This document shows, piece by piece, positions 24,943 through 59,490 of a stretch of DNA of 60,350 nucleotides. Positions within the stretch are counted from its first letter, which is position 1, and every line of letters begins with the position of its first letter. The position numbers were made by a program, and so were the translations under genes. The notes beneath the pieces were generated by a model. That model had not been told where the DNA came from and did not search any database. It worked only from the letters and a program-made list of their open reading frames with translations. The stretch is from a virus (lineage: Duplodnaviria; Caudoviricetes): the IMG/VR virus record IMGVR_UViG_3300007735_000768, positions 1 to 60,350 of that record; one strand, given 5' to 3'.

Positions 24943-24946
24943 TTTG

Positions 24947-25663
24947 TTACTCCATAATATTCTTTTTAATTGATTTTGAAATTGCCTTTTGCAAGCCATT
25001 CTTATTAAATCTTGAATACAAAGAAGTCAAACTTGATGACTTTTGATATTTCTTGTAATCAATACAAGCCTGAGATAGATTCATTAAATCTTGATCAAAA
25101 TGAAAGCGTTTTAAGATAACAGGTTTCTCCGTATTAAATTTAACATATGCGATAGGGTCTCCTTTTTTAATGCTTACAAAATTGACATTTTCATTTAATT
25201 GTATTGCGGCTTCTACGGGTCTAAACCAAGAATTTATATTAAAAGTTCCCGGAACGAAATGCCCATTAAAAACTTGAGGGTGTAAATAAGCGGGCATTGC
25301 TACCATTTCTAACGGCTCATCAGACCAAAAAATCCAATTGTTTAATATAGAAAAAGTAAAGGCATTTTCAACTGTCGCTTCTTTTTTTGTTACAAATTTA
25401 ATAGTTTCTAAATCGCTTTCAGGCAATTGCATAATGCCTAAAGTCGAATGTAACCCAAAAGTAACTTCAAACGGAGATTCTAAAACAAAACTATTTTTGA
25501 CAGTATTTAGAAAAGCGTGACATTGAAACCAATTGTCGTGCTTGTTGGTTTTATTTTGCTTATATTTTATTGATGAAAGAACAGATTTCGGTTCATCATA
25601 TAAAAGATGCAAAGAAGCAAAGTCGGTACTTGGATACCAAGGTGACCAATAAACTATTTTCAT
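24947..25663 (-). CDS. Conserved phage protein, distant relative of the two previous
   Basis: PGTFNINSWFRP, IKKGDPIAYVKF. Confidence 0.65.
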   Translation of the reverse strand: MKIVYWSPWYPSTDFASLHLLYDEPKSVLSSIKYKQNKTNKHDNWFQCHAFLNTVKNSFVLESPFEVTFGLHSTLGIMQLPESDLETIKFVTKKEATVENAFTFSILNNWIFWSDEPLEMVAMPAYLHPQVFNGHFVPGTFNINSWFRPVEAAIQLNENVNFVSIKKGDPIAYVKFNTEKPVILKRFHFDQDLMNLSQACIDYKKYQKSSSLTSLYSRFNKNGLQKAISKSIKKNIME

Positions 25664-26215
25664 TTAAATAAAGTCAATATTGATTACACAACGGTAGTCA
25701 TGCTTAATTGGTTTTGAAGAGGCATGATATTGCAACCCGTCAAAAATAACTCCACGACCCATTCTAGGGCTTACCCTCAATGCTTCCGTTAAATCCTTTT
25801 TTTCAATATTTATGCCTTCATGCCAAAATTGTTCAAAAAAAACAGTATCTCCGTCCGAATCATTTACATAGTATAAAAAAACTTTATGTGGAGTATTTTG
25901 ATCAACATGAGGTGCAAGATAATCGCTTGATGTTGCCCTTGTTGTTATATTTGATTTAATTCGAATAATTTCATTAACCGCAATTGAATGTTTTAATGTA
26001 AAATTTTTAAACAGACGCAAGATTCCCGCAGATGTGTTTGTGTCGGCAAACACGCTATGAACAAATTGAAAAGAGTGATCGTTTTCTAGTGATTCTTTAG
26101 AAGAACGCTCAATATTTGTCTGAGGCTGAAATTGCCATACTCCATGCGTCAACAAACCTTGTTGAAATTCTAAAGCGGATTCATAGGGGATAAAATTGTC
26201 ATCTTGAATAATCAT
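25664..26215 (-). CDS. 2OG-Fe(II) oxygenase superfamily protein
   Basis: PHVD...LYYVNDSDGDT.FF...IFDGLQYHAS...R.VIN (HxD...H...R). Confidence 0.85.
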   Translation of the reverse strand: MIIQDDNFIPYESALEFQQGLLTHGVWQFQPQTNIERSSKESLENDHSFQFVHSVFADTNTSAGILRLFKNFTLKHSIAVNEIIRIKSNITTRATSSDYLAPHVDQNTPHKVFLYYVNDSDGDTVFFEQFWHEGINIEKKDLTEALRVSPRMGRGVIFDGLQYHASSKPIKHDYRCVINIDFI

Positions 26216-26284
26216 AAAACTAGCCTACTCTGGTGTCGGGTTGAGTTCAAGCCTTAGTTGGGGTAGGGCGTGTAAGATAGAGGC

Positions 26285-26725
26285 ATGACTTTTACCTATG
26301 TAGGACCCGCGACCTCTGATCGCGATAAGGTGCGCTTTCTTATTCAGGACACGGATTCAAATAACCCGCATATGACTGATGAGGAAATCAATTGGTTGAT
26401 CAGCGAATGGGCAGATGTTTATGACGCGGCGGCTAACGCGGCAGATGTCCTTGCTGGTTCATACGCTCACAAGGCTGACTACAACAAGTCGGTCGGAGAT
26501 TTAAGTTTAAGTGAAACATTCTCAACACAGTCACAGCGTTTCTCGTCACTTGCAACTAGCCTTCGACTTAATCGCATGCGTCGCTATGTCCCAACATGGG
26601 TTGCAAATGCAGAAGCACTTAAATCAACTGCCGATCGTGTTGTAGATACTCACAACACAGATGCGTTTATGGGTCAAATGGATAATCCACGCGGAACGGG
26701 TCTTTACTCAGACGGAGAAAGTTAA
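26285..26725 (+). CDS. Head-tail adaptor
   Basis: DRDKVRFLIQDTD...MTDEEI; first of connector genes. Confidence 0.75.
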   Translation: MTFTYVGPATSDRDKVRFLIQDTDSNNPHMTDEEINWLISEWADVYDAAANAADVLAGSYAHKADYNKSVGDLSLSETFSTQSQRFSSLATSLRLNRMRRYVPTWVANAEALKSTADRVVDTHNTDAFMGQMDNPRGTGLYSDGES

Positions 26726-27078
26726 TGTCGCATCAATGGACAGGACCCGAAGGCATTGATGCCAAGTTTGCAGAAATGATGACTGACACGATCGTGTTTA
26801 ACGCGGGATCAGCCATTGACAAATATGGCAAGCGCACTTATGGTGGAACTACAACAACTGCAACAGGTCGAATTGTATTTGAAAATCGCTTGATGAAAGA
26901 TGCAGAAGGACAAGACATTGTTTCAACAGGTCGCGTTTATCTCTATGGTGCTTATGGGTCGCTGACTCTTGCTGACAAAATAACTTTGCCAAATGGAACA
27001 ACACCCGTGATCATTGCACTTGAAACAAAGAAAGATACAGGCGGCAATCACCACACAGTTGTTCACTTTGGTGTCTAA
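26725..27078 (+). CDS. Head closure/stopper protein
   Basis: DKYG, DKITLP; synteny. Confidence 0.65.
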   Translation: MSHQWTGPEGIDAKFAEMMTDTIVFNAGSAIDKYGKRTYGGTTTTATGRIVFENRLMKDAEGQDIVSTGRVYLYGAYGSLTLADKITLPNGTTPVIIALETKKDTGGNHHTVVHFGV

Positions 27079-27479
27079 TGGAAATCTACTTCACAAACCT
27101 TGATCGTATTCAAGCGGCAATTGCGGCATCGGGTAAAGCGGGTGCAGAGGTAGCGGCTCGCGCATTGCGTCACGAAGCACAAGAGGCATTTGCACGATCA
27201 CAAGATCAAGTTCCTGTTGATACAGGCGCACTCAAAGGATCGGGTCGAGTTCGACCTGAAACAGGCGGTGTTTTTCATGCGGGCAATGAGGTCTTTGTTG
27301 AATTGACTTACGGATCAACCGCGGTCAGTTACTCAGTTCCTGTTCACGAAAACCTCGAAGCGCATCACCCTCACGGCAATGCCAAGTATCTTGAAATCCC
27401 AATGGCACAACAAGCCGCTGGTGCAGGTGGGCGCATTGCTGATAAAGTAGAGGCAATTCAGAAAGGAATGATCAAATGA
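27078..27479 (+). CDS. HK97 gp10-like neck protein
   Basis: VPVDTGALKGS, VHE, AKYLE. Confidence 0.8.
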   Translation: MEIYFTNLDRIQAAIAASGKAGAEVAARALRHEAQEAFARSQDQVPVDTGALKGSGRVRPETGGVFHAGNEVFVELTYGSTAVSYSVPVHENLEAHHPHGNAKYLEIPMAQQAAGAGGRIADKVEAIQKGMIK

Positions 27480-27874
27480 TCCTAGAGGCATTAGGCGATT
27501 ATTTAGTCACCAATAACAAAGGCACATTGGGTTCAACGATCTTCTTAGGCAAGATGCCAGCAAGTCCTGACTATTGCATTACTGTCTACGAGTATGAAGG
27601 CGTTCCACCGAAAGAATCATTTGGCACAGCCGCCTTTGACATTGACATGCCTCGAATTCAAGTTGTAGTTCGAGCGGCTCGCGATGATTACCCAACTGCT
27701 CGTGATGCGGCAGAATCAATTCGACAACTTTTCGCATCGATCACGAACTTAACGATTTCTTCAACGAAGGTCTTGCGTGTCGCGTCAATAGGCTCTACCC
27801 TTCCTTTAGGCTTAGATGATAAGGACAGACCTCGCATCAGTGCTAACTTTCAGGCATATGTAGAAAGACAGTAA
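27476..27874 (+). CDS. Tail terminator (minor capsid-type)
   Basis: PRIQVVVRA, LGLDDKDRP..SANF. Confidence 0.75.
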   Translation: MILEALGDYLVTNNKGTLGSTIFLGKMPASPDYCITVYEYEGVPPKESFGTAAFDIDMPRIQVVVRAARDDYPTARDAAESIRQLFASITNLTISSTKVLRVASIGSTLPLGLDDKDRPRISANFQAYVERQ

Positions 27875-28026
27875 TGAGCGAGCCGATCAAAGACCCTTAC
27901 GGAAGGGGCGCAAATCGTGACGAAACTCCCAAGTGCTGGCGGTGCGGCAGAATCCTTGCCGAATACCTCACAGTCCCATACTCGCTCAAATGCTCTCGAT
28001 GCAAAGCAGTCAATCAGCACCTTTAA
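27874..28026 (+). CDS. Mu Com-like zinc-finger regulator (50 aa, not in ORF track)
   Basis: KCWRCGRILAE...LKCSRCKAVN; TAATG coupling to tail terminator. Confidence 0.75.
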   Translation: MSEPIKDPYGRGANRDETPKCWRCGRILAEYLTVPYSLKCSRCKAVNQHL

Positions 28027-28261
28027 AGAAGGGTTGACGCAACTCGTCAACAATCCAAAAGTATTTGCAGGGCAAGAGTGTTTTGTTGGACAAATGCTTG
28101 CTAATTTAAACAACGAAGAATCATTGTTACTCCATACCGCGCTCGCGGATAAACGAATTCGACATGTTGATCTTGTTCGTCTTTGTGAGGCAGAAGGTTA
28201 CAAAATGAGCGAGGCAACTATGCGCAGACATCGCGCAGGTGGTTGCAGGTGCGATAAGTGA
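27917..28261 (+). CDS. Hypothetical protein (true start probably downstream)
   Basis: Ends SEATMRRHRAGGCRC; coupled to phosphoesterase. Confidence 0.55.
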   Translation: MTKLPSAGGAAESLPNTSQSHTRSNALDAKQSISTFKEGLTQLVNNPKVFAGQECFVGQMLANLNNEESLLLHTALADKRIRHVDLVRLCEAEGYKMSEATMRRHRAGGCRCDK

Positions 28262-29460
28262 CATTTTCTGATCGTGTAAAAGCATTGGTAGGCGAGGCAG
28301 ACGCTGAACAGAACGAACCGCCAAAGCGCGATCGGAAAGCGCAATGGGTTCCGGGCATTGAATGGAAAGGTGACGAAGGCGAAGTCACAACCCTTCCAAT
28401 GGAAGGCGATAATCACCCCGACTGGTCAAGCATCCTCAAAATATGGGGATTAGACCCTGAACAATTTTCGGTCGTTGAACCTGTCTTGTTCAATGTATGG
28501 GGAAGTCCTGATGGCATCTTGAATCGCCAATGGAAGGGCAAAGTAATTCGCAATAAACCCGAGTTGGGTAGTCCTTACGATTTAGAGGCATTACGCGATG
28601 AGATCAAACGCCACAAACCAAAGAAAGTTCAACCATTGCATGGCGATGGTGTGTTCAATGTTGTCCTTGCAGATTGGCAAATAGGTAAATCAGAGGGCGG
28701 TGGAAGTCAAGCCACAGCCAAGCGTGTTTTAGATGCCATAGAAGCCGTTAAAGGGCGCGTAGACGAGTTAAAACGATTAAAGCGACCTCTAGGCACACTC
28801 CAAATCATATGGACGGGAGATAGCGTTGAAGGCTGTCTAGGGCATTATGAGATGCAGACATTTAGCGTCGACCTTGATCGGCGAGCGCAAGTAAATGCAG
28901 TTCGAACATTATTGCTAGAGGCAATTCGTCAATGGTCGCCTCACTTTGAGAAAGTGCGCATAGTTGCAGTTGGGGGAAATCATGGCGAAAATCGATCGGC
29001 AAACGGCAAAGCGTTCACAACCCTTGCCGACAATGATGATCTTGCTGTCATTGACCAAGTCAAAGACGCCTTGGAATTCAACCCAGAGGTCTATGGGCAT
29101 GTTGAAACGATTATTGCGCCTGATCATCTTTCGCTCACAGTCGAAACGGCGGGGTGGATTCTAGGTTTAACGCATGGTCACACAGCACGATCAGGTGGCA
29201 CAGCAGAACAAAAGTTAAAGACATGGTTAAGCAAAATGGCACTTGGTCGTCAACCAATTGGCGAATCAGACATTTTGATCACAGGTCATTACCACCATTT
29301 GCGTCAAGCAGATTGGGGAAGCGTTCATTGGATTCAAGCACCAGCACTAGACGGGGGATCAGAATGGTTCAGAATGACAAGCGGAGAACACAGCGAAGCG
29401 GGAATGTTGACCTTCGCGACATACCCCGAAGCGAAGGTGAAGGATTTACAAATTCTATGA
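28258..29460 (+). CDS. Calcineurin-like metallophosphoesterase
   Basis: ADWQIGK, GDSVEG, GGNHGE, THGH, GHYHH. Confidence 0.85.
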   Translation: MTFSDRVKALVGEADAEQNEPPKRDRKAQWVPGIEWKGDEGEVTTLPMEGDNHPDWSSILKIWGLDPEQFSVVEPVLFNVWGSPDGILNRQWKGKVIRNKPELGSPYDLEALRDEIKRHKPKKVQPLHGDGVFNVVLADWQIGKSEGGGSQATAKRVLDAIEAVKGRVDELKRLKRPLGTLQIIWTGDSVEGCLGHYEMQTFSVDLDRRAQVNAVRTLLLEAIRQWSPHFEKVRIVAVGGNHGENRSANGKAFTTLADNDDLAVIDQVKDALEFNPEVYGHVETIIAPDHLSLTVETAGWILGLTHGHTARSGGTAEQKLKTWLSKMALGRQPIGESDILITGHYHHLRQADWGSVHWIQAPALDGGSEWFRMTSGEHSEAGMLTFATYPEAKVKDLQIL

Positions 29461-42109: not shown

Positions 42110-44299
42110 GTGGGGTTTTTTCTTTCCGTTTTGTCACTAGCGTTTTCATTCAATGTTGCGTTAGATTCTACTGACGCGTCTGCAAGTTGTGTCACAACCG
42201 CTCAATCAATTGCAACAGCGCAAACCGCGCCTGTCACTTTAAACGAAACTGTTACGGCGACAACAGAAGGACAAACAGTTACATCGACTCCTGTGATCGT
42301 TCAAGATACTTGCGGCGGCGATGATGTTTCGTATCAAGTTGCACTTCCAACAGCAGTTAACTTTGGTGGAACAACTTACAACGCAGTTTATGCAACAACT
42401 AACTCAACAATTATTTTTGGGCGACAAGACAACACTTATCACACATGGCCGTCTAGTCCTTCAATTTCAGTTAACGCCTATGACTGGGTTGTTTTAAATC
42501 CTGCCAATCAGCCTCAATATCCCGCAGGTTGGAAAGCGGAAGATGAGCATTTAATTATTTCTTCAAGTCAGGCGGGTTTTCAAGTAGACCTTGCTGTTCG
42601 ACCATATGGTGCAAATGCCGCGGGAACGCCTTTGTCTACGATCGTTGTAACTGCCGCGATCAATCCTGACAACACTTTAAGTATTACTTATCTGTCTGAT
42701 GTTCAGGCGGGGTTGCAGACTCGAACTGGCGTTGTAATGCCTGACGGAACTCATCTGACTCTTGAACAAGCGGGAATGACTCGAGTATATGTTGCTCCTG
42801 TGGTAACGCCTGAATCAATTGCCACGCCGTCACCAACTCCAACACCCGAACAAACCCCCACACCGACACCGACCCCAACAGTAGAGCCGACACCCACACC
42901 CATTCCATCGCCTACTCCTTCACCATCGCCAACGAATTTGCCCGATCCAACGCCATCTCCAAGTCCGACATCCGAACCAACGCAGTCGCCAACTCCGACT
43001 CCTTCGCCAACAACAGAGCCTTTACCTTCACCAACTCCTTCTCCAACGAGTCCTGCCCCAACACCAACTCCGTCTGAACCTGCTGTAACTCCAACTCCAA
43101 CGCCTTTACCACAGCCTTCCAATAGTTCTCCGTCGCCTGAACCATCTCCTACTCCTTCCGTCGAACCTTCTCCAACTCCGACTTCAACACCTGAACCTGC
43201 ACCTGTTCCCACACCAACGCCTGTTCCAACGCCCGAACCCGCGCCTCAACCTGTTCCCGTTCCTCAGCCCGTTCCCGAACCTTTGCCTTCTCGTCCTGAA
43301 CCACCGATAGCACCACCAACACAACCAACGGCGCCAGTAGAGCCAATGCCACAACCATTGCCACAACCTGAACCTGCCCCTGAACCTGCACCCGAACCCC
43401 CTGTTGTTGACAACAATCCTACTCCTGAACAACCGCCCGCAGAAGCCCCATCAGAACCCGTAGAACCGCCACCAGCGGTCGAAGAACCCCCAGTTGCTAT
43501 TCCTGACCCCGAAGGATCAATTGGCGAGCCTCCTACGCCTGTGGAAGAAGCGCCAGCCCCACCAACAGAAGAACCGCCAGCAGTTGAAGAGCCAGCACCA
43601 ATCGACCCACCTGCCGAGGAACCTGTTGCCCCCGAGTTGCCACCTGAAATACCAGCAGAACCACCATTAGTAGAACCAGAGCCAAGTAATCCGTCACCTG
43701 AACCATTAGAGCCTCCTGTTGTTACGGCGGAAACATGGGAACCGCCCGTTGCACCTGAAGAATACTTGAGTTCTGAAGAAATACAAGCCTACAAAGAAAT
43801 TGGCATTGTTCCTAACAGCGTTGATCAATTACCAACAGACAAACCGAAGTTACCTGACGCATCAGAATTAGTTCCACGCGTTCAACAAGATGTTAAAGGT
43901 GTTGAAAACGGCGGCATTGAATTCTTTGGAACAAAAGATCAACCACAAGTTATTGGCGAAGACGGCAAATTAACACCGCCGCCACCACCGCCTAATTCGG
44001 GATTACCAATCGATCCCGATGCGATCACAACCGAGGAAACATTTCTTGGTCAAGTCGGTGGAGTGACTTTTAACTCTCCCGATGTTGCAGTTGTTGTAGA
44101 ATTAGTCGAAGTCAGCGTTCCTGACTTGATCGATGCGATCCCAAGCGCAGGTGAGGCAATTCAAGCAATAAATACCGCTTATGTTGCGCTCGCCAATGTT
44201 GGTAATGATATGAGTCCCGTGACTCGTAAAAAGGCTAAGAAAGTCTTAGTCGGAACCATTATCGCTAGTCCTTTATTTAGAAGGAAGTTTGGGGAGTAA
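42110..44299 (+). CDS. Secreted/surface proline-rich protein
   Basis: Signal peptide, globular N-domain, ~300-aa PT/PS/PE stalk, basic-hydrophobic C-terminus. Confidence 0.75.
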
Positions 44300-45473: not shown

Positions 45474-45977
45474 ATGAATCTACGCGAAACCGCTTTGCGA
45501 CTAGCCGCAATTACAGTTGTGGCAGATGCCGCGAAAGATGCGAAAGACAGGCTCCGTGATCAATTTGCAGAACAGTTAAATGCTGTTGGTGCAGATGCCG
45601 CAAAAGCCTCGCTCGACGATACGGAAATTGCTAAAGTTTCTCTTGTTAGTCCCAAGTCAAGTGCAACAGTAGTTCATGAAACAGCGTTCATTAAGTTCGT
45701 TGAAAACATCATGCCTACTGAAATTGTTAAATCAGTTCGCGACAGTTACAAGAAAGTGTTTCTTGAAAATTGCGTGAATGTTGATGGCAAAACAATCTAT
45801 ATACCAACGGGTGAAGTTGTTGATTTCATCAGTTTCAAGAATCGTGAATCTTATGTTAGTTGCAGATTCGCAACAGGAGGGCGCGAGGCAATTGCTGACG
45901 CGTTCCGATCAGGAACATTAAATCCTGCTCAATTGCTCGATGAAGAACCCGCAGAAATTGAGGGTAGTCATGTCTGA
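45474..45977 (+). CDS. Hypothetical protein (recombination module)
   Basis: CCACGAAAGGAG box; upstream of ERF. Confidence 0.7.
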   Translation: MNLRETALRLAAITVVADAAKDAKDRLRDQFAEQLNAVGADAAKASLDDTEIAKVSLVSPKSSATVVHETAFIKFVENIMPTEIVKSVRDSYKKVFLENCVNVDGKTIYIPTGEVVDFISFKNRESYVSCRFATGGREAIADAFRSGTLNPAQLLDEEPAEIEGSHV

Positions 45978-46608
45978 TCAAAAACCAACAATTCATGAGT
46001 CAATGGCAAAGGTCATGGCAAGCGTTTCATCGGTTGCTAAAAAAGATAAAAACACCTCACAGGGTTTTAACTTTCGAGGTATTGATGCGGTATTAAATGC
46101 CGTAGCCCCTGCATTGCGTGAACATGGTGTGATCGTGATGCCTAAAGTCAAATGGCATGAATACAAGACAGTTGAAGTTGGTCAAAAGCGAACTCAAATG
46201 GCGCATGTCATTATCTCAGTTGTCTACACATTCACAGGTGTTGCAGGTGATTCTATTGAATGTGAAGTGTTGGGCGAGGCGATGGATTCAGGTGATAAGG
46301 CAGTTGCAAAAGCGATGTCCGTTGCCTTTCGAATTGCATTACTTCAAGCACTCGCATTACCAACAGATGAACCCGATCCTGACTCATACAGTTATGAACG
46401 ATCTGAGGCAAAACCTCACGCAACCATTGATCAAGTTGAAGCATGGAAAATGCGCATACTCGACGCGGTTGATGGTCAAGTCCTTGAATACATCAGACAA
46501 GAGTTATCAAACTTTGAATTTTCTGATGCACTTCGAAATGATTTGGCAAGTGTCTACACGACACGCTTGAAAGACCTTAAAACACCAAAGGTCACACAAC
46601 AGCAATAG
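45970..46608 (+). CDS. ERF-family single-strand annealing protein; start revised to 45970
   Basis: FNFRGIDAV, GEAMDSGDKAVAKAMSVAFR..LLQ..ALPT..DPD. Confidence 0.88.
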   Translation: MSDQKPTIHESMAKVMASVSSVAKKDKNTSQGFNFRGIDAVLNAVAPALREHGVIVMPKVKWHEYKTVEVGQKRTQMAHVIISVVYTFTGVAGDSIECEVLGEAMDSGDKAVAKAMSVAFRIALLQALALPTDEPDPDSYSYERSEAKPHATIDQVEAWKMRILDAVDGQVLEYIRQELSNFEFSDALRNDLASVYTTRLKDLKTPKVTQQQ

Positions 46609-46624
46609 AAATTGTTGTATTGTT

Positions 46625-46945
46625 CGCGACCCGTCAGACATTGGCGGGTCGCGTTCATTTTGCCGATAGAAAGGCGTTAAACATCTAGCACGACTCATCA
46701 TCGTGTCACCCCGTTAGATGGGTTAGTTTTGCTTTGCAATGATGATGTAAGGCGTAGCGGTAAAACGATAAGCCGCGAGCATGATCAATATGTCTAAAAC
46801 GAGTTGCCTAGACATGATCATCAATTGATTATGCAAATAGCGCAACTGTCGCACTTGTAGTGAGTGCGACCTATCGACATGACCGAACCGAAGGGTGACG
46901 AGAAATTAGAGATAGTCCACACAAGGCTATCTCTAATCACTCCCT
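46625..46945. ncRNA. Candidate structured non-coding RNA or structured origin
   Basis: At least six hairpins in a gene-free stretch of an otherwise densely coded genome. Confidence 0.5.
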
Positions 46946-46978
46946 CTAGGATCGGAGAAATAATGATAAGGTGACCAA

Positions 46979-47362
46979 ATGGCAAAACGAAACACAGGTC
47001 CGACAAAAGAAGTTCGTGAAATGGTTTTAGATAGAGCAAAACATCGTTGCGAAAAATGCGGCAGTCTGCTCGGCATGAATATGTCTTATTCCATACATCA
47101 TCGAATTCCTCGCGGCATGGGTGGGTCTGATCGCGCTGAATTAAATCAACCTTCAAATTTGCTCGCGTTATGCGGTTCGGGAACAACAGGTTGCCATGGG
47201 TGGGTGGAATCGCATCGATCGGACTCTTATGAGGACGGCTGGTTATGCTATCGAAATGACGACCCCAAGACAGTCATGGTCAAAGTTGCAGATTCTCAGC
47301 CCATGAGTGATAAGTTTCAGTATGTCTATCTCACAGATGACGGAACATACCAACCCGTCTAA
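46979..47362 (+). CDS. HNH endonuclease
   Basis: RCEKCG...IHHRIPRGMGG...NLLALCGSGTTGCHGWVE. Confidence 0.9.
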   Translation: MAKRNTGPTKEVREMVLDRAKHRCEKCGSLLGMNMSYSIHHRIPRGMGGSDRAELNQPSNLLALCGSGTTGCHGWVESHRSDSYEDGWLCYRNDDPKTVMVKVADSQPMSDKFQYVYLTDDGTYQPV

Positions 47363-47792
47363 ACCTTGCACAACCTGTGGCGCGTTTTCAGGTGATCAAT
47401 GTGCTGAAGGATGTCTTGATCAAATGATCACTTATCGAATTGAATATGGCGCACGACCTTGGACAACAAACAGCGAGCGCGCAGGAAATCGATGGGAACG
47501 CGCAAAAAATGTTAAAGAGTGGCGCGAGGCGTTTTTTTATTTAACCAAAGCACAAAAAATACCAAAACTCAAATGGGCTACGATCACAATTGAACCTTGG
47601 CAAAAAGGTGGCGTGTTTCAAGATGTTGCATCGTGTAATCCCGCGTCTAAAGCGGCAATTGATGGGATCGTAGATGCTGGTGTGCTTGACGATGACTCAC
47701 CGCAGTATCTAAGATCGGTTACATTCCTGAGACCACAACGCGGAAAAAATGCTATGGTTCTCTACCTACATGGGGTTAAGCAAGAGGGGTAA
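47334..47792 (+). CDS. RusA-like Holliday junction resolvase (start uncertain)
   Basis: DVASC.P..KAAIDGIVDAGVLDDD. Confidence 0.7.
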   Translation, partial: QMTEHTNPSKPCTTCGAFSGDQCAEGCLDQMITYRIEYGARPWTTNSERAGNRWERAKNVKEWREAFFYLTKAQKIPKLKWATITIEPWQKGGVFQDVASCNPASKAAIDGIVDAGVLDDDSPQYLRSVTFLRPQRGKNAMVLYLHGVKQEG

Positions 47793-49250: not shown

Positions 49251-50078
49251 ATGAGAATGACTTTCGCATTAGGCACTTCGCCTACGCACTCAGCGATCAT
49301 CAACGAAATTCAACCAAAAAACATTCTTGTGGCGTTCCCATATGCAAAAGCATTAGACACTCTCACTTACAAACCTGAATATGTCATGACCGACTCAGGC
49401 GCGTTCACAGCATGGAATGTGGGCAAGAAAGTGGACATAGTGGCATATGCGGATTGGGCGTTGTCACAGCAAGCAAAGTTTCCACGCGTCTTGTCAGTTA
49501 ACTTAGATGTGATTCCGGGCGAGAAAGGTCGAACTTCAACTGCCAAAGAACGAATTGACGGCATGAAGCAATCGATCAAAAATGCAGATTACTTACGCGC
49601 TCGCGGTTTGAATGTCATGGAAGTGTTTCATCAAGACGAACCAAAAGAGTTTTTAAATGAGTTAGTTGATCGTTTGCCAAAAGATTCAGTTTTAGGCATC
49701 TCACCTCGTAACGATAAGCATTTGAAAGCCAAAGTCGAGTGGCAAGCCGTTGTCATGCGCTCGCTGATCGAAAAGTGCGGCAAAGAAAACTTGCCTCGAA
49801 CTCATGGATTAGCGGTAACAAGCATTGAAATGTTACGCAATTTTCCCTACTATTCTGGTGATTCATCAACATGGGTTAACCCTTTCCGCTATGGCGGTTA
49901 TGTAGATGAGCGCGGAAGAATTGTGGGAATTGACACGATCATGAGCAAGCGACCTAGCGGTAGCGAGTCAAATGATGCGCTTCATTTCTTTGCAAGGGAA
50001 AGTATCTACAACTTAATTCGTGTAGGCGACGCTATGACTTCATTGTGGAGTAAGCGTGGAATCGACTGGAAGGACTAA
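49251..50078 (+). CDS. dpdA: DpdA-like DNA guanine transglycosylase (TGT fold)
   Basis: DSGAF, NLDVI, VFH, HGLAVT, SGDSSTW; adjacent to que genes. Confidence 0.75.
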   Translation: MRMTFALGTSPTHSAIINEIQPKNILVAFPYAKALDTLTYKPEYVMTDSGAFTAWNVGKKVDIVAYADWALSQQAKFPRVLSVNLDVIPGEKGRTSTAKERIDGMKQSIKNADYLRARGLNVMEVFHQDEPKEFLNELVDRLPKDSVLGISPRNDKHLKAKVEWQAVVMRSLIEKCGKENLPRTHGLAVTSIEMLRNFPYYSGDSSTWVNPFRYGGYVDERGRIVGIDTIMSKRPSGSESNDALHFFARESIYNLIRVGDAMTSLWSKRGIDWKD

Positions 50079-50079
50079 A

Positions 50080-50760
50080 ATGGCAAAAACACCTGCATTG
50101 GTGATCAAGAATATTCCGATCAACGAAATTGATCCGAATCCTTGGAATCCCAACAAACAAAATGAACGCCAATACCAAGCGGAAATTGAATCTATTGCCG
50201 AAAACGGATTCCTTGCGCCTATTTTGGTTCGCGAAAATGGCGACCGCCACGAAATTATTGATGGTGAACATAGGTGGAAAGCATTGCGTCAGATTGCAGA
50301 AGATGGGGTCGACGCAAAACAAAATGTTCCTGAATTGATCAAAGCGGGAACTATTCCTGCCATTGTGATCGATGTCAACGATATTCAAGCAAAGAAGTTA
50401 ACGATCATCATGAACGAAACTCGCGGTCGTGCCGATCTTGCCGACCTTGGTGCATTACTTCAAGAAATCTCAGTTGACTTAGGCGATGATTTGCTGATCG
50501 GTTTGCCATATACCGATGGACAACTCAAAGAACTAATGGGCATGGCTGACTTTGACTGGGATCAATTTGAAAAAGGCGCATCAGATAAAGAATTTGATAA
50601 TGCAGACGGAGATGGTTTCCGCGTGACCGCACTTCTGAATGAAGAAGATGAGGCGCGTTGGAAGGGTTATCTAGCACAGTTGCGTGGCGACTTGCCTGAT
50701 GAACCAAAAGAACAAGCAGGGGCGTTGATCGCGCACTTGATGAATAAAGCAGGACTATAA
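50080..50760 (+). CDS. ParB/Srx-like domain protein; start revised to 50080
   Basis: PNPWNPN, GF..PILV, IIDGEHRW, N.TRG. Confidence 0.85.
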   Translation: MAKTPALVIKNIPINEIDPNPWNPNKQNERQYQAEIESIAENGFLAPILVRENGDRHEIIDGEHRWKALRQIAEDGVDAKQNVPELIKAGTIPAIVIDVNDIQAKKLTIIMNETRGRADLADLGALLQEISVDLGDDLLIGLPYTDGQLKELMGMADFDWDQFEKGASDKEFDNADGDGFRVTALLNEEDEARWKGYLAQLRGDLPDEPKEQAGALIAHLMNKAGL

Positions 50761-50804
50761 CCGAGGTATCTAGGAAACCCTCACTATAAAAAACAGGAGA
50801 TAAA

Positions 50805-51233
50805 ATGACACAAACAGATCACTTGACCGTTCTTGGTCAAAGAGTAGAAGGATCACTAACAAAAGATCAGTTGGAATTTTTTCCAGCACCCGAGCATGTT
50901 GATCATGTCAAGTTTGAGACGCGTGAATTCACTTCATTGTGTCCTGTAACCGATCAACCCGATCTTTACACAGTAATAATTGAATACTCACCTAACGGGC
51001 GTTGCGTTGAGTCAAAGTCACTCAAGTTATATCTTGGGCAATGGCGAAACAAAGGCATCTTTGGCGAGGCGATCACAGCACAGATTGCATCTGATTTATT
51101 TGAAGTATTGGACGCGGGTTGGGTTGAAGTTAAGACGATTCAGCAAGCGCGTGGCGGTTTGGTTATGACAGCAGTTGCTTCACGATCAAAGGGTTACAAG
51201 TTGGAAGATGGAGAGTTGGTGCCAAATGCCTAA
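50805..51233 (+). CDS. queF: preQ0 reductase QueF (type I)
   Basis: EFTSLCPVTDQPD, ESKSLKLY QueF motif, RGG. Confidence 0.9.
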   Translation: MTQTDHLTVLGQRVEGSLTKDQLEFFPAPEHVDHVKFETREFTSLCPVTDQPDLYTVIIEYSPNGRCVESKSLKLYLGQWRNKGIFGEAITAQIASDLFEVLDAGWVEVKTIQQARGGLVMTAVASRSKGYKLEDGELVPNA

Positions 51234-51939
51234 AGCCGCAGTTGTCGCATCAGGCGGCATGGATAGTGCAACACTCGCATGGCATTACTACTCAAAAGGC
51301 TATGACATTCATCTGATCGGTTTTAATTATGGTCAGCGACATGTCAAAGAACTTGATTATCTACAAAAGATCGCGTTTGCAATTGAAGCAGATTTCACGA
51401 TCGTAGACATGGGATTCATGGCAGATTTGCTTCATGGATCATCATTGACAACTGACGGGGGCGAAGTTCCTGATGGGCATTACCGAGAAGAAACAATGAG
51501 AGCAACTGTTGTGCCTAATCGAAATGCGATCATGTTGTCTATTGCAACGGGCATAGCGGTCGCGGAACAATGTGAAGTTGTGGCAACTGGAATCCATTCA
51601 GGCGATCACTACATCTATCCTGATTGCCGTCCGTCATTCTTTGAACCTCTACAAGCCGCGTTTAAGGCTGGAACAGAAGGACATTCATTGCCTGATTTCC
51701 GTCTTGAAGCACCATTTATCGATAAGACAAAAGCAGACATTGCGGCTTATGGAAATGAATTAGGTGTTGATTACACAATTACTTGGTCATGCTACAAGGG
51801 CGGCGAAGAACATTGTGGTCGTTGTGGAACATGCGTTGAACGCATTGAAGCATTTATTGACGCAGGAGTTAAAGACCCAACCGATTATGCAGAGGGCATT
51901 GAATTCGCGCTCGCCGAAATCGAAAAGCGCCGTGTTTAG
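51226..51939 (+). CDS. queC: 7-cyano-7-deazaguanine synthase; start revised to 51226
   Basis: SGGMDS, YGQRH, VPNRN, YPDCR, TWSCY..CGRCGTC. Confidence 0.95.
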   Translation: MPKAAVVASGGMDSATLAWHYYSKGYDIHLIGFNYGQRHVKELDYLQKIAFAIEADFTIVDMGFMADLLHGSSLTTDGGEVPDGHYREETMRATVVPNRNAIMLSIATGIAVAEQCEVVATGIHSGDHYIYPDCRPSFFEPLQAAFKAGTEGHSLPDFRLEAPFIDKTKADIAAYGNELGVDYTITWSCYKGGEEHCGRCGTCVERIEAFIDAGVKDPTDYAEGIEFALAEIEKRRV

Positions 51940-52375
51940 ATCCACAAAGCGTTATGGTCATGAAGTAGGTTTCAGTTGCGCGTTCCGTCAATGGAAAGCC
52001 GACTCTCATTGCAACCGACTTCATGGCTATGCGCTTGCCTTCACATTCACTTTTGAGGCAACCGAACTTGATCATCGCAATTGGGTAGTTGACTTTGGCG
52101 GTTTGAAAGCATTGAAGAATATGCTGGAAAAAACCTTTGATCATAAAACAGTTGTAGCGGAAGATGATCCTTATTTATTTGAATTACAGAATCTTGATCG
52201 ATTAGGAGTTCTTGATCTTGTTGTGCTTCCTGCAACAGGATGCGAGAAATTCGCGGCACTTGCCTACGAACTTGCAATGGAAGTTTTAAAGCGTGACGGA
52301 TTCTACCCGCGTTGTCGAGTTGTGAAAGTAGAGGTAGCAGAACATGGCGCGAATTCTGCAATTTACATCCCATGA
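51932..52375 (+). CDS. queD: 6-carboxytetrahydropterin synthase; GTG start 51932
   Basis: HCNRLHGY, WVVDFG.LK, FDH, GCE, VAEH. Confidence 0.9.
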   Translation: MFRSTKRYGHEVGFSCAFRQWKADSHCNRLHGYALAFTFTFEATELDHRNWVVDFGGLKALKNMLEKTFDHKTVVAEDDPYLFELQNLDRLGVLDLVVLPATGCEKFAALAYELAMEVLKRDGFYPRCRVVKVEVAEHGANSAIYIP

Positions 52376-53091
52376 CAACTGAAACGCCCAACAGAGAGCG
52401 TTGGGTGAATATCAACGAAGTATTTGGACCCACAATCCAAGGCGAAGGTATTCACACAGGGCAACGCGTCGGATTTGTTCGATTAGCAGGGTGCAACCTT
52501 GCATGCTCATGGTGTGATACGCCTTATTCATGGGATTGGGACAGATTTGATCGTAAAGAGGAATCTCATAAAACGCTGATCAGCGAACTTGCTACTCAGA
52601 TAAAAAACATGGGCGTTGATCGCATCATCTTGACTGGTGGTGAACCTATGTTGCAACAAACGGCAATATGGGATTTAAAAGCATCGATCGGTGACATAGA
52701 CATAGACATTGAAACCAATGGAACGATCTTGCCTAACATCAAAACGATCAACGCGGTAGACATGTTCTGCGTTAGCCCGAAACTTGCCCATGGTGGCGAT
52801 TTGCTGGAAGTTCGACGAACCAAAGCACTTGAAGCCTTTTCATACATAGCGGGGGAAGGTCGAGCGATATTCAAGTTTGTTTGCCAATGGGCATCTGACT
52901 TTGATGAAATAGACGAGATCATTACTCAATTCAAAATCCCGCGCAACGCAGTTTGGATTATGCCCGAAGGCGTGACACAACTTGCTCAAATGGAAACAAT
53001 GCACCGACTCGCAGATGAGGCGATCAATAGAGGTTTCAATATCTCACCACGCCTTCATGTGCTTATTTGGAATACGGAACGAGGACGCTAA
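52372..53091 (+). CDS. queE: 7-carboxy-7-deazaguanine synthase (radical SAM); start revised to 52372
   Basis: TIQGEG, CNLACSWCDT, TGGEP, IETNG, VSPK, RLH. Confidence 0.95.
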   Translation: MTTETPNRERWVNINEVFGPTIQGEGIHTGQRVGFVRLAGCNLACSWCDTPYSWDWDRFDRKEESHKTLISELATQIKNMGVDRIILTGGEPMLQQTAIWDLKASIGDIDIDIETNGTILPNIKTINAVDMFCVSPKLAHGGDLLEVRRTKALEAFSYIAGEGRAIFKFVCQWASDFDEIDEIITQFKIPRNAVWIMPEGVTQLAQMETMHRLADEAINRGFNISPRLHVLIWNTERGR

Positions 53092-53649
53092 ATGGCAGTA
53101 GATGTTGAAAAGATTGAGGCTCTCACGCGTGAGTTGCTCATTGCAATAGGTGAAGACCCCGATCGTGAAGGCATAATCGATACTCCTAAACGCTACGCAA
53201 AATGGTGGAAAGAGTTTATGGATTATGACGCGGGAAAGGTTGAAACAGCGTTTGAGATTCAAAATAGTGATCAAATGGTTGCTGTTAGAGGCATGAAGGT
53301 ATGGTCGCTTTGTGAACATCATCTATTGCCGTTTAGTGCAACAGTCAGCATTGGATATATTCCAAATGATCGTGTTCTAGGACTTTCTAAGTTTGCTCGC
53401 GTCGCTCATGAACAAGCACACAAATTGCAACTTCAAGAACGCCTTGTGACAGACATTGCCGATCGTTTAAGCATGATCATGAACACCGAGAACATTGCGG
53501 TCGTTGCAGACGGCTCGCACTCTTGTATGACCATGAGAGGGGTTAGAACAGAGGGAAGTATGAGAACATCAGTTATGCGTGGTGTGTTTAGAGATGAACA
53601 TGAAACACGCGCTGAGTTCCTTAACCTTGTTTCTAATTCAGGAAACTAA
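53092..53649 (+). CDS. folE: GTP cyclohydrolase I
   Basis: TPKR, SLCEHHLLPF, GLSK, QERL, HSCMTMRGV. Confidence 0.95.
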   Translation: MAVDVEKIEALTRELLIAIGEDPDREGIIDTPKRYAKWWKEFMDYDAGKVETAFEIQNSDQMVAVRGMKVWSLCEHHLLPFSATVSIGYIPNDRVLGLSKFARVAHEQAHKLQLQERLVTDIADRLSMIMNTENIAVVADGSHSCMTMRGVRTEGSMRTSVMRGVFRDEHETRAEFLNLVSNSGN

Positions 53650-56504: not shown

Positions 56505-56557
56505 ACACATCCTTTCCTTCTCGGGGCAAAACAGGCGGAGTAACCTTTTACGCGGGG

Positions 56558-56773
56558 TTACTCCGTCTTTGCTTTGTTCCAATGATGAAATGACTTGATA
56601 TAAACAGAGGCGTAGGCGATCGCGGCAAATAAGAATCCATACTGCTTAGTTGTGATCGCATAGATTGACCAAAGGACTTCGTTTGTGATCAAGACGAGCC
56701 AACCCCATATAGTTTTTCTACCAACAAAATAAATCCCAGTTATGCCTACAAGTCCTAACACCCATGACCACAT
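56558..56773 (-). CDS. Small PnuC-like membrane protein
   Basis: Three hydrophobic segments, RKTIWGWLV..NEVLW.IYA....YG. Confidence 0.6.
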   Translation of the reverse strand: MWSWVLGLVGITGIYFVGRKTIWGWLVLITNEVLWSIYAITTKQYGFLFAAIAYASVYIKSFHHWNKAKTE

Positions 56774-57615: not shown

Positions 57616-57657
57616 TTGACACATTACGGGGGTTGACCTTATACTATAAGTGTAAGG
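57616..57657 (+). promoter_or_regulatory. Early promoter TTGACA-N18-TATACT
   Basis: Near-copy of 614-655. Confidence 0.8.
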
Positions 57658-57674
57658 GAAAGAAAGGAAATCAA

Positions 57675-57887
57675 ATGTCTAAACAATGTAACCGATGCGG
57701 TAAGGCTGGATTGGTTTGGAAACAAAGCAAGAAAGGCAATTGGTACTTAGCAGTTGAACAAAAGTGGCAAGGCGACATGTATGGCGCAATCCGCACTTTC
57801 TATCCTGCACACCAATGCGTTCAAGAAGAAAGTTATGAACGCAACGAAAGTTTCTTATTCGACTTACAAGCAAGAAGCGGCGCATGA
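57675..57887 (+). CDS. Small CxxC protein; start revised to 57675
   Basis: GAAAGGA RBS; CNRCG...WKQSKKGNWYL. Confidence 0.65.
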   Translation: MSKQCNRCGKAGLVWKQSKKGNWYLAVEQKWQGDMYGAIRTFYPAHQCVQEESYERNESFLFDLQARSGA

Positions 57888-57893
57888 TCATGG

Positions 57894-57951
57894 TTGCAAT
57901 TGTTAAAATAAGAACTTATACTATGAATGTAAGCAAACGACCACGAAGGAG
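57894..57951 (+). promoter_or_regulatory. Early promoter TTGCAA-N17-TATACT plus CCACGAAGGAG box
   Basis: 57894-57899, 57917-57922, 57941-57951. Confidence 0.8.
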
Positions 57952-57957
57952 AACATC

Positions 57958-58350
57958 ATGAATCAAGAAGTAATGAATCAAGCAAATGTCTTCGCTACCG
58001 AGGCAAGCAAGGTGGTTTTTGAACCTGCTTACGGCGCAAAATACAAGGCGATCTACGAGGCAGTTGCAAAGCGCAAATATATTGTGATCAGAGAAACTGA
58101 TCGTCAAGTCGATTATGGTCATGGCAAAGGTTGGGAATTCTACGGACGCGATTCTGTGGTCTGCATGATCAACATGGAAACAGGCGATGTTTTCAAGTTA
58201 GAAGGTTACAACCAGCCAGCAAAGACACCACGCTACAACATCATTAAAAATGTTGATCAAATGATTGAAAACTTCAAAGTTGGCGGTAACAACGGCGGGT
58301 TTATGTATCAGGACTTCAAAGACATCAAAATCGAGAGAAAGGCGGCATAG
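57958..58350 (+). CDS. Conserved phage hypothetical protein (TGDVFK...PAK..RYN)
   Basis: Box-associated start. Confidence 0.7.
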   Translation: MNQEVMNQANVFATEASKVVFEPAYGAKYKAIYEAVAKRKYIVIRETDRQVDYGHGKGWEFYGRDSVVCMINMETGDVFKLEGYNQPAKTPRYNIIKNVDQMIENFKVGGNNGGFMYQDFKDIKIERKAA

Positions 58351-58352
58351 CA

Positions 58353-58589
58353 ATGACTATCTACAACGAGCATGTCCAAACTGAAACAGGTTTTGTGTTT
58401 GAACGCAAAAACCCAACAGGTTTCTTTGAGTGGGAGAAGGTAGAAATTAACTTCGCCACAAACCACACCTACGCGTGGGGAAGCAATAACTCATTTGCGG
58501 TCGAGGTTCATCCTGATCGAGCAACAGCAGTCGCTAGATACCATGAATGGATTACATCAAACATGGTAAGAGTCGGTTGCAATTCATAA
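58353..58589 (+). CDS. Hypothetical protein
   Basis: Co-oriented, tight packing. Confidence 0.55.
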   Translation: MTIYNEHVQTETGFVFERKNPTGFFEWEKVEINFATNHTYAWGSNNSFAVEVHPDRATAVARYHEWITSNMVRVGCNS

Positions 58590-58637
58590 AATAAAATCTT
58601 ATACTATGAATGTAGGAAACAATAAACCACGAAGGAG
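58577..58637 (+). promoter_or_regulatory. Early promoter TTGCAA-N17-TATACT plus CCACGAAGGAG box
   Basis: 58577-58582, 58600-58605, 58627-58637. Confidence 0.8.
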
Positions 58638-58643
58638 AAAAAA

Positions 58644-58970
58644 ATGACACAAATAGCAGAAAAGAAATATGTTCGCCAAGTTGATGCAAAAACATTGGTA
58701 AATCAAATTGGCATGATGAATGTCTTGGCAATAAGTGGCGGTCGCGTTATTGATCGTGGAACAGGAATCACTTTGCCAGTCGGTCACGGATACAGCGTTG
58801 AGATCGATTTGAACTTTATGGATTTCTACGATGTCAAGCGCGTCTACACAAGAGGCGGTAAGCGCGTGGTTAAGGGTGAGGCAGTCGATGTTGATTGCTT
58901 CGAAGTCGGAGAGGTTGCTTACAAAGCAAGTTGCTATGTAAATGTCAGTTTTGGAGAGGACAAGAGATGA
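58644..58970 (+). CDS. Conserved actinophage-type hypothetical protein
   Basis: QIG.MNVLAISGGR, LPVGHGYSV, YKASC. Confidence 0.7.
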   Translation: MTQIAEKKYVRQVDAKTLVNQIGMMNVLAISGGRVIDRGTGITLPVGHGYSVEIDLNFMDFYDVKRVYTRGGKRVVKGEAVDVDCFEVGEVAYKASCYVNVSFGEDKR

Positions 58971-59118
58971 CACAGAACATTGTCTTGGATCAACAAGGAA
59001 AACAGAATTTCAATTCAGTAATGATCATGATGAAATTCGTTGATCAAATGGTTGCAAAAGGTTACACAAAAGATGAGGCGATCGCCGCGATTGAACAAAT
59101 AGTTAGGGGGAGTAAATA

Positions 59119-59448
59119 ATGGCTAAGATAACAATTGTTTGGTGTGCCTTCGCTGGTAGTTGGAGTGAAGAACGCGAAAAGGAATCAGGTCGCAAAGGAA
59201 TCACAAGGGTTGAATTCGAAATGCCAACAACTCCTGCGATCGATGATGAAATGATCTGCGATCAGATTTACAAAGAAACAAATACTTATCGTGGAAACAT
59301 TTGGGATCAGTTCAATGAGCAGTTTCCAAAGGATCGTTCACACACCGCAATTAGCGTTGGTGACATGATCGGGATTGATGATCGTTTCTACTTCTGTGCC
59401 GATGTTGGTTGGGTAAAGGCATATGAAAAGATAGTTGCAAATGTTTAA
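59119..59448 (+). CDS. YodL-like domain protein
   Basis: HTAISVGDMI.IDDRFYFCADVGW. Confidence 0.55.
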   Translation: MAKITIVWCAFAGSWSEEREKESGRKGITRVEFEMPTTPAIDDEMICDQIYKETNTYRGNIWDQFNEQFPKDRSHTAISVGDMIGIDDRFYFCADVGWVKAYEKIVANV

Positions 59449-59490
59449 TTGAGAACTCATAATATGAATGTAGGACAAACCACGAAGGAG
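59435..59490 (+). promoter_or_regulatory. Early promoter TTGCAA-N17-CATAAT plus CCACGAAGGAG box
   Basis: 59435-59440, 59458-59463, 59480-59490. Confidence 0.75.

Follow-up and report, generated by a model that had tools for sequence, protein, structure and literature searches.

The window analysed here is the whole of a 60,350-bp virus record, which is complete and carries direct terminal repeats. This freshwater phage is actinophage-like, with a WhiB gene and a TerL protein 54% identical to those of Arthrobacter phages. A gap of 370 nt separates the gene for an ERF-family single-strand annealing protein from that for an HNH endonuclease, and the structured region is housed in this gap. Its core is a new, horizontally mobile, structured element of about 280 nt, which is conserved and built of multiple helices. 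The coordinates of the flanking genes, the element and its individual helices are collected in Table 1.

At least two stops interrupt each of the six reading frames in all 14 of 14 copies, and the element is therefore non-coding. The same stops rule out a small-protein reading; an antisense ORF of 95 aa is limited to some lineage 3 copies (see below). A scan of the region for tRNA and tmRNA genes found none. The initial annotation, made from the window sequence, had proposed a novel structured element at this position, and that proposal holds up in three respects: the element matches no Rfam family, it folds better than shuffled controls, and it covaries strongly among its homologues. In a search against Rfam 15, the whole window gave no match at gathering score, and at E ≤ 10 the window and three homologous loci (L241, L099 and L084) returned only snoRNA and sRNA noise with E > 2. 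Tested as RNA against dinucleotide shuffles, the whole gap has a z score of -5.5 on the + strand and -6.1 on the - strand. The corresponding values for a 298-nt core are -4.67 (RNA, + strand), -3.98 (RNA, - strand), -4.16 (DNA, + strand) and -3.54 (DNA, - strand). The fold energy reflects genuine self-complementarity. Since both strands beat the shuffles under RNA as well as DNA parameters, energy alone does not select the strand or the kind of molecule.

Table 1. Genes, structured element and helices of the ERF-HNH interval, in window coordinates.
Feature	Position	Strand	Observations
ERF-family single-strand annealing protein gene	45940..46608	+	PF04404, E 1.7e-24; upstream neighbour in lineages 1 and 2
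Intrinsic-terminator-like hairpin	46625..46661 (stem 46625-36/46642-53)	+	13 bp, 9 of them G-C, then a T run; closes the ERF transcription unit
Cassette (conserved structured element)	46662..46946	+	covariance model (CM) R1 286 bits, R2 279 bits; sole blastn match to the unrelated phage L114 (46662-46934)
P1 closing helix	46664-46669/46871-46876 (CGAUAG/CUAUCG)	+	forms in 13 of 14 copies; varies by a single G-U to A-U change and lacks compensatory changes; 2 of 6 pairs broken in L241
P2 helix	46674-46680/46837-46843	+	without variation in 13 of 14 copies, L241 having 2 of 7 pairs broken; invariant U-G pair; surrounds the five-hairpin junction
P3 hairpin	46688-93/46701-06	+	compensatory changes in 5 of 6 pairs
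P4 hairpin	46707-11/46720-24	+	compensatory change in 1 pair; other pairs conserved
P5 hairpin	46730-40/46745-54	+	compensatory changes in 3 of 9 pairs (CM alignment); one-sided changes only (MAFFT alignment)
P6 hairpin	46757-61/46772-76	+	4 of 5 pairs invariant; conserved 10-nt loop
P7 long hairpin	46779-96/46809-34	+	compensatory changes in 17 of 18 pairs; as many as 5 kinds of pair at one position; conserved apical loop
Candidate pseudoknot	46802-46806 (P7 apical loop)/46843-46847 (junction after P2)	+	4-5 pairs complementary in 14 of 14 copies
P8 hairpin	46848-56/46862-70	+	compensatory changes in 6 of 9 pairs; invariant 5-nt loop core GUAGU
P9 3' domain	inner 46908-14/46928-34, outer 46897-906/46935-46	+	inner 7 pairs 100% paired, varying A-U to G-U only; outer pairs weaker, 82-90%
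HNH endonuclease gene	46979..47362	+	phrog_740, E 2.8e-31; downstream neighbour in lineages 1 and 2 only

Homologues and comparative structure

Homologues were collected from loci fetched with the ERF protein and then by pattern scans of viral and metagenome contigs, with confirmation by CM. The P6 motif served as a search pattern and recovered the copies L240 and L241. The carriers now comprise 19 contigs, 12 of them viral (the window included) and 7 from metagenomes, and hold 15 distinct sequences, namely 13 full copies together with L241 and the 5'-truncated L240. These fall into three to four lineages. The first contains the window with L241 and L240, the second is about 73% identical to the window, and the third about 57-61%. 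Among the 80 loci fetched with ERF, the gap sequence is present in only three (L001-L003, at about 78% identity); a CM search of the other 77 found no diverged copy, and neither did a CM search of seven family-2 relatives of L114, described below. GenBank phages and PLSDB plasmids gave no match by blastn. In bacterial and archaeal genome contigs, a loose pattern produced at least 120 chance matches, from which the 80 fetched loci were all CM-negative, and a specific pattern produced 2 matches, both CM-negative. Contigs from four DNA runs contributed near-identical variants and one far relative that covers just 46837-46875; a 20-nt motif from the flank of that relative found no match in viral contigs.

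The fold predicted from the alignments consists of two closing helices, a junction of five hairpins, a likely pseudoknot between a loop and the junction, a further hairpin and a 3' hairpin domain. The nine stems listed in the initial annotation are all complementary in the window, and seven of them are kept among the homologues, where they correspond to P1, P3, P6 (listed as 46757-60/46773-76), P7 (listed as two stems, 46779-89/46824-34 and 46790-96/46809-15), P8 (listed as 46848-55/46863-70) and P9 (listed as 46905-17/46925-37). The two that are not kept are 46625-36/46642-53 and 46682-87/46715-20. The second of these is specific to the window, and relatives form P4 instead. The first is the terminator hairpin; it shows compensatory changes in L001-L003 and L241, and it lies outside the similarity to L114 (46662-46934) and so does not belong to the transferred cassette. 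The earlier list lacked P2, P5 and the candidate pseudoknot.

Support for this fold comes from compensatory substitutions. Over the only three to four lineages that the covariation statistics span, RNAalifold applied to a MAFFT alignment of 13 distinct copies gave 76 pairs, 25 of which show compensatory changes, as opposed to 2-6 when the pairing partners are slid by 1-3 columns. The cells of this alignment are 98.1% paired, compared with 36-47% after sliding, a figure in which the structure is favoured because it was taken from the same alignment; none of 500 column shuffles reached the observed values. In a CM-fitted alignment of 14 copies, which is biased towards the model, compensatory changes occur in 34 of 92 pairs against 4-14 in the slid controls. 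We regard the covariation indicated by these alignments as strong. It is centred on P3, P7 and P8. The helices P1, P2, P6 and inner P9 are nearly invariant, so that they neither gain nor lose support, with the exception of L241. That copy sits in a complete 59.4-kb genome, yet has broken pairs in both P1 and P2.

The candidate pseudoknot was found by a search for covarying column pairs outside the CM. Its two changes, from G-C to A-U and from G-U to G-C, are common to the window and L241 and represent one evolutionary event. A 2-bp helix of the CM is in competition with it, and this helix is broken in the window and in L241. We consider the pseudoknot likely. Long invariant unpaired stretches are also present in the junctions. 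Two further interactions that had been read by eye were discarded. The other lineages do not conserve the kissing contact that UCAUCA and UGAUGA could make between the P3 and P5 loops of the window, and a Shine-Dalgarno/anti-Shine-Dalgarno switch (GGGUGA with UCAC) is not conserved in lineage 3.

The pairing pattern also bears on which strand folds. The 1256 paired cells of the 14 sequences include 998 Watson-Crick pairs, 169 G-U or U-G pairs (13%) and 15 A-C or C-A combinations, and three wobble pairs are invariant in the MAFFT alignment. The excess of G-U over A-C cells and the invariant wobbles point to the + strand, which is the gene-sense strand, as the one that folds, in agreement with the argument from G-T pairs in the initial annotation. 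The stems of the near-identical environmental variants carry four substitutions, three of them A>G with G-U as the outcome, the fourth leaving a C-A mismatch. In every context the + strand of the element is the strand of the flanking genes. The DNA-parameter minimum-energy fold of the + strand recovers few of the comparative helices.

Transfer of the element and gene content of its carriers

We compared the window with L114 (genome G001, 19,555 bp), a carrier of the third lineage and a small siphovirus that is 93% complete according to CheckV and carries terminase, portal, protease, capsid, tail, endolysin and glycosyltransferase genes. It too is actinophage-like, and its TerL has its best matches, at about 30%, in Microbacterium, Curtobacterium and Arthrobacter phages. 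The element is the only blastn match between the two genomes, with 68% identity over 288 nt, and elsewhere they have one short protein region in common. In lineage 3, the upstream neighbour of the element is an Arg-rich protein of 102-125 aa, and downstream lie a 53-aa ORF, a 60-aa ORF and a DUF6378 protein, with neither ERF nor HNH beside the element. In lineages 1 and 2 the HNH start follows the element after 33-55 nt; in lineage 3 the next ORF begins about 160 nt on. No protein gene accompanies the element from phage to phage. It is a self-contained cassette, transferred between phages that are otherwise unrelated and linked to neither HNH nor ERF. The carrier phages look lytic, since no integrase, ParA or repressor was seen in scans of them.

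The sole clue to function comes from relatives that lack the element and from what occupies its slot in them. In family 1, a downstream HNH gene is present in 47 of the 80 fetched ERF loci. Three of these 47 ERF-HNH loci hold the element, and there the two matches lie about 520 nt apart. Forty of the 44 element-free relatives have a coding block of 1.06-2.3 kb in its place, and the other four have something else. An initiator-like protein is encoded in 32 of the 40 blocks, and a wHTH protein with accessory genes only in the remaining 8. The initiator-like proteins match PHROGs annotated as 'replication initiation protein' and 'DnaD-like helicase loader' (phrog_4707/428/270) and, weakly, HTH_36 and DnaD_N. 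Three apparent non-coding gaps after ERF, in L006, L042 and L270, proved to be coding. In family 2, five of the seven element-free relatives of G001 have a metallophosphoesterase, a small ORF and a Prim-Pol (PF09250, E 6e-30) in the slot, between the same flanking genes that border the element in G001. The other two, G008 (92% complete) and G009 (complete, with terminal repeats), have only the phosphoesterase there, and neither Prim-Pol nor the element occurs anywhere in their records.

The gene content of the carriers fits this exchange. Four near-complete carriers (G000, G001, G003 and G005) gave no match to the initiator protein or to HTH_36, and G000-G003 gave none to Prim-Pol. In Pfam and PHROGs scans, the window matched SSB, ERF and a RusA-like protein, and neither the window nor L114 showed a recognisable initiator, helicase, primase or polymerase. 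An annotated DNA helicase gene does occur in Arthrobacter phage Ottawa, a cultured TerL relative, within the stretch that was fetched. By position, the element replaces replication genes in two unrelated families. The initial annotation had remarked that it lies where a replication initiator gene often does and that no such gene is recognisable in the genome, and both the synteny of the relatives and the profile scans confirm that remark.

Many ORFs of the window are without an assigned function and could include an unrecognised initiator, for which p167 (45474-45977), an ORF peculiar to the window lineage, is one candidate. The genomes are mosaic on both sides of ERF, as the lineage-specific p167 illustrates.

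A possible role in replication and its alternatives

Only two strong + strand terminators are found between 40.4 and 60.35 kb, at 46625-46653 and 56533-56568, and about 10 nt separate the T run of the first from P1. The element heads the unit of about 10 kb that follows, which includes the HNH gene, genes for RusA-like, ParB-like and DpdA-like proteins, the Que genes and terminase, with no terminator between the element and HNH or the genes downstream. A link to 7-deazaguanine genes was considered and set aside, because the sister genome G003 is without QueC. Sigma-70-like promoters cluster at 57.6-59.5 kb. The scan, which covered this one promoter type, found none before the element in 45800-47600, and likewise none around the copies in L099 and L114.

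In modular phage genomes, non-homologous segments found at one position usually share a job. Here a non-coding cassette takes the place of initiator genes in one family and of a Prim-Pol block in another, and its carriers have no recognisable initiation genes of their own, which suggests that the element itself may be the initiation module. We judge the chance that it has some role in replication, counting RNA and single-stranded DNA forms jointly, to be slightly better than even. More tentatively, and with a confidence that stays below even, we propose as the leading explanation that it is a replication-initiation module that acts as a transcript, at an RNA-primed origin. The element would then be a cis-acting origin that requires no phage initiator or primase. 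It would be transcribed as the 5' leader of the unit that runs from HNH to terminase, and the transcript would fold, remain hybridised to the template or be processed on it, and supply the primer to a host polymerase, with host factors sufficing. Such initiation would resemble that by ColE1 RNA II and, in cluster A mycobacteriophages, by the RNA-based prophage origins. Transcription of the element, its priming or starting of replication, and the sufficiency of host factors are what we infer from the comparisons above. A bolder form of the proposal, which we rate as possible and rather doubtful, is that a single pseudoknotted RNA of about 280 nt serves as a portable, protein-free replicator, enough to recruit the host enzymes and traded between unrelated actinophages in place of initiator or primase genes.

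Several observations weigh against a replication module. No sigma-70-like promoter was found ahead of the element in either family, and in the window only about 10 nt lie between the terminator's T run and P1. G008 and G009 lack both alternatives, so family 2 can dispense with Prim-Pol and the element, and the slot may be a mosaic hot spot. The closing helices of L241 are damaged within a complete genome. Neither an AT-rich unwinding region nor a cluster of DnaA boxes is present (14 boxes against 19 expected, with no enrichment). No homology to the origin region of phage Alma was detected (see below), and an initiator may hide among the unassigned ORFs, p167 for example. The GC skew of the window mainly tracks the coding strand and a Pro/Thr-rich gene and is uninformative on this point.

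Some of these observations keep alive the best-surviving alternative, which is that the element is an RNA without a part in replication, lodged in mosaic hot spots. It could be a 5' leader that acts on the operon downstream by ligand sensing, processive antitermination or stability, or a processed RNA acting in trans, as the ligand or decoy of a host factor. We regard this as a possible reading, one that we would not expect to prevail; it is retained on account of G008 and G009, of the promoter that was not found and of the damage in L241. It agrees with an orientation that is always that of the flanking genes, with a position shortly before the next ORF in all three lineages and no terminator in between, with invariant unpaired junction stretches that resemble a binding pocket, and with the mosaicism on both sides of ERF, where p167 is lineage-specific. 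Against it, the downstream genes differ wholly between the families (HNH in one, small ORFs in the other), which leaves no gene-specific regulon, and no promoter or flanking terminator delimits a separate RNA gene. It also leaves unexplained the lack of initiator and primase genes in carriers from two unrelated families. A riboswitch or other gene-specific leader was rejected for the inconsistent family of its downstream gene, which is HNH in some phages and the 53-aa and 60-aa ORFs with DUF6378 in others.

A second alternative keeps the replication role and changes the molecule. The displaced + strand would fold as single-stranded DNA and be recognised as a priming signal by host primase, RNA polymerase or PriA. 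The evidence from position and gene content applies equally to this reading, which would also suit a strand-specific fold of about 280 nt and a cassette exchanged between unrelated replicons. Such a signal would need no promoter, which fits the absence of one, and the + strand does fold better than its shuffles under DNA parameters (z -4.16). The carriers, however, are tailed dsDNA phages and not rolling-circle replicons, and no PLSDB plasmid matches. The G-U share of 13%, the three invariant wobbles and the covariation in the pseudoknot fit better with the tertiary folds typical of RNA, and few of the comparative helices are recovered by the DNA-parameter minimum-energy fold. We consider the DNA form unlikely. 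Over it we prefer the RNA form, given that wobble pairs are conserved, that the fold includes a likely pseudoknot and that the element runs in the direction of the genes.

A selfish or catalytic RNA spread by homing (a group I-like intron, a ribozyme or a HEARO/omega-RNA-like partner of HNH) is very improbable, for while it would account for the sporadic, cassette-like distribution in unrelated phages, the HNH gene that adjoins the element in lineages 1 and 2 and the complex fold with its candidate pseudoknot, the element is intergenic and interrupts no host gene, Rfam holds no intron, ribozyme or HEARO match to it even at E ≤ 10, lineage 3 has the element without a neighbouring HNH, and the HNH protein (127 aa, matching phrog_740 only) has no RuvC part and is present in more than 40 element-free relatives. 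A group I intron in particular was rejected on the grounds that ERF ends with a stop, HNH starts with ATG, the lineage 3 copy is intergenic and no intron model matches; a HEARO or IscB omega RNA, which lies upstream of a nuclease of the IscB type with RuvC and HNH parts and is always linked to it, was rejected on the grounds that element and HNH gene are each found with the other missing beside them and that Rfam has no match. The initial annotation had offered two roles, a non-coding RNA possibly partnering the HNH and a structured origin or priming signal. The first finds no support, given lineage 3, where neither HNH nor ERF adjoins the element, and the element-free relatives that carry the same HNH. 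The second is the better supported, on circumstantial evidence.

Comparison with known systems

For the single-stranded DNA form, the analogues are the single-strand origins (ssoA type) and the priming signals of the ssi/G4 type of plasmids and ssDNA phages. These fold in a strand-specific and orientation-dependent way over 100-300 nt, keep conserved motifs unpaired and pass between replicons as cassettes, and they act as single-stranded DNA on rolling-circle replicons. The element resembles them in its strand-specific intrastrand fold and its exchange as a cassette. It differs in being carried by tailed dsDNA phages, in its conserved, G-U-rich pairing with a likely pseudoknot, and in having no match in PLSDB.

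The large orphan structured RNAs GOLLD and ROOL, which are associated with phages, measure about 580-800 nt, and we know of no link between them and replication genes. Like the element, they are complex, conserved non-coding RNAs that occur in phage or prophage DNA and for which no partner protein is known (bioRxiv 10.1101/2024.12.08.627333). At about 280 nt the element is much smaller, and it has no match in Rfam. Should it prove not to be an origin, it would still be a new and well-supported class of complex phage RNA that is experimentally tractable.

ColE1 RNA II starts from a defined promoter about 550 nt upstream and is controlled by an antisense regulator, RNA I. As the cluster A study summarises it, RNA II dispenses with an initiator protein and is a transcript of several stem-loops, whose fold matters and which turns into the primer of a host polymerase (PMC7157519). 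The carriers of the element likewise have no recognisable initiator, and the element as proposed would act in the same manner. For the element we found neither a promoter nor an antisense partner, and it has no sequence relation to RNA II and no Rfam match.

The closest parallel is with the cluster A mycobacteriophages that carry parABS. RepA is encoded by 5 of 110 of these phages, and for the RNA-based origin of cluster A transcription, necessity and sufficiency were shown experimentally; the authors liken it to ColE1 RNA II (Wetzel et al. 2020, mBio, PMC7157519). The cluster A origin without RepA and the element are alike in that both belong to actinobacteriophages and consist of a non-coding region of a few hundred bases, placed where sister phages encode an initiator, with none found elsewhere in the genome (PMC7157519). 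They differ in lifestyle, as the cluster A origin maintains a plasmid-like prophage and adjoins parABS (PMC7157519), whereas carriers of the element look lytic. Conserved secondary structure, which characterises the element, is not described for the cluster A origin in the passages concerned (PMC7157519). A search of the Alma region 25500-28500 (L279) with CM R2, filters off, gave a best score of 2.5 bits (E 0.5), with no homology detected. We therefore limit our claim and propose that the element works like a cluster A RNA-based origin, not that it is a member of that group.

This comparison bears on how small or gene-poor actinophages without replication proteins start DNA synthesis. If the element is an origin, a compact fold of RNA (or single-stranded DNA), testable by covariation, would substitute for an initiator or primase, and replication modules would be exchangeable as a non-coding cassette of 300 bases. 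It would also offer a minimal replicon for the genetically poor freshwater Actinobacteria. If the portable RNA replicator is true, it would be the first structurally defined RNA replicator cassette of lytic tailed phages. With the element as an origin, RNA-based initiation would extend from ColE1-type plasmids and the prophages of mycobacteria to lytic phages of fresh water.

Sequences around and beyond the element

A 1455-nt environmental contig (run X3) matches the window only across 46837-46875, the stretch that comprises the 3′ strand of helix P2, the whole of P8, and the 3′ strand of P1, with six differences. Its flanks are dissimilar to those surrounding the matched region in the window. 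This short match gives a hint that the element has yet another lineage, one that has diverged more.

Downstream of the element, three loci (L099, L104, and L107) carry two direct repeats spaced 20-30 nt apart. The repeat unit is ACATCAAAAC in L099 and ACACGAAAA in L104 and L107. From one sublineage to another the two copies co-vary, and this behaviour is iteron-like. Another element-bearing locus, L113, has a near-perfect hairpin in the corresponding flank that is missing in its sister loci and looks like a small inverted-repeat insertion.

Positions of features near the element and elsewhere in the window
Feature	Location	Description
Two direct repeats	L099 1860-1900; equivalent place in L104 and L107	~70-110 nt downstream of element
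Near-perfect hairpin, ~110 nt	L113, ~10-130 nt downstream of element	-73 kcal/mol for folded flank
Small protein, Arg/Lys-rich N-terminus	L099 1114-1422; L114 3856-4233 (-); L266 1164-1442	Directly upstream of element in lineage 3; upstream of phosphoesterase/Prim-Pol block in element-free relatives
167-aa protein, phrog_5168	Window 45474-45977	Upstream of ERF
743-aa fusion protein	Window 12111-14342	Head module; XkdF-like serine protease domain + Zeta-toxin/AAA_33 kinase-like domain
Low-GC island, three genes	Window 24259-26215 (-)	32-38% GC; within structural region
729-aa protein	Window 42110-44299	Very long Pro/Thr/Ser/Glu-rich linker
DpdA-like transglycosylase (phrog_887), second ParB_N protein, QueF-like, QueC, QueD, QueE, and FolE genes	Window 49251-53649	Pfam/PHROGs matches
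Strong sigma-70-like promoter cluster	Window 57616-59463	TTGACA or TTGCAA, 17-18 nt, TATACT or CATAAT

Genes upstream of the element

The 167-aa protein occurs in 3 of the 80 loci fetched via the ERF protein, each of which also bears the element, and has one distant match elsewhere. Its restriction to element-bearing ERF loci means that mosaicism extends to the other side of ERF too. In lineage 3, the copies of the element found in an unrelated phage family, the upstream position is held by the gene for a small protein, which matches nothing in Pfam or PHROG. The same gene sits upstream of the phosphoesterase/Prim-Pol block in element-free relatives.

Other genes of the window

The minus-strand island includes an endonuclease V-like gene (phrog_274) and is probably an acquired moron. 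The gene for the 729-aa protein is responsible for a GC-skew trough at 43-44 kb, which might be misread as the mark of a replication origin. At the right end, the sigma-70-like promoters precede small genes and are likely to be early promoters. QueC is absent from the sister genome G003. Taken jointly, the genes at 49251-53649 make up a 7-deazaguanine DNA-modification cluster.
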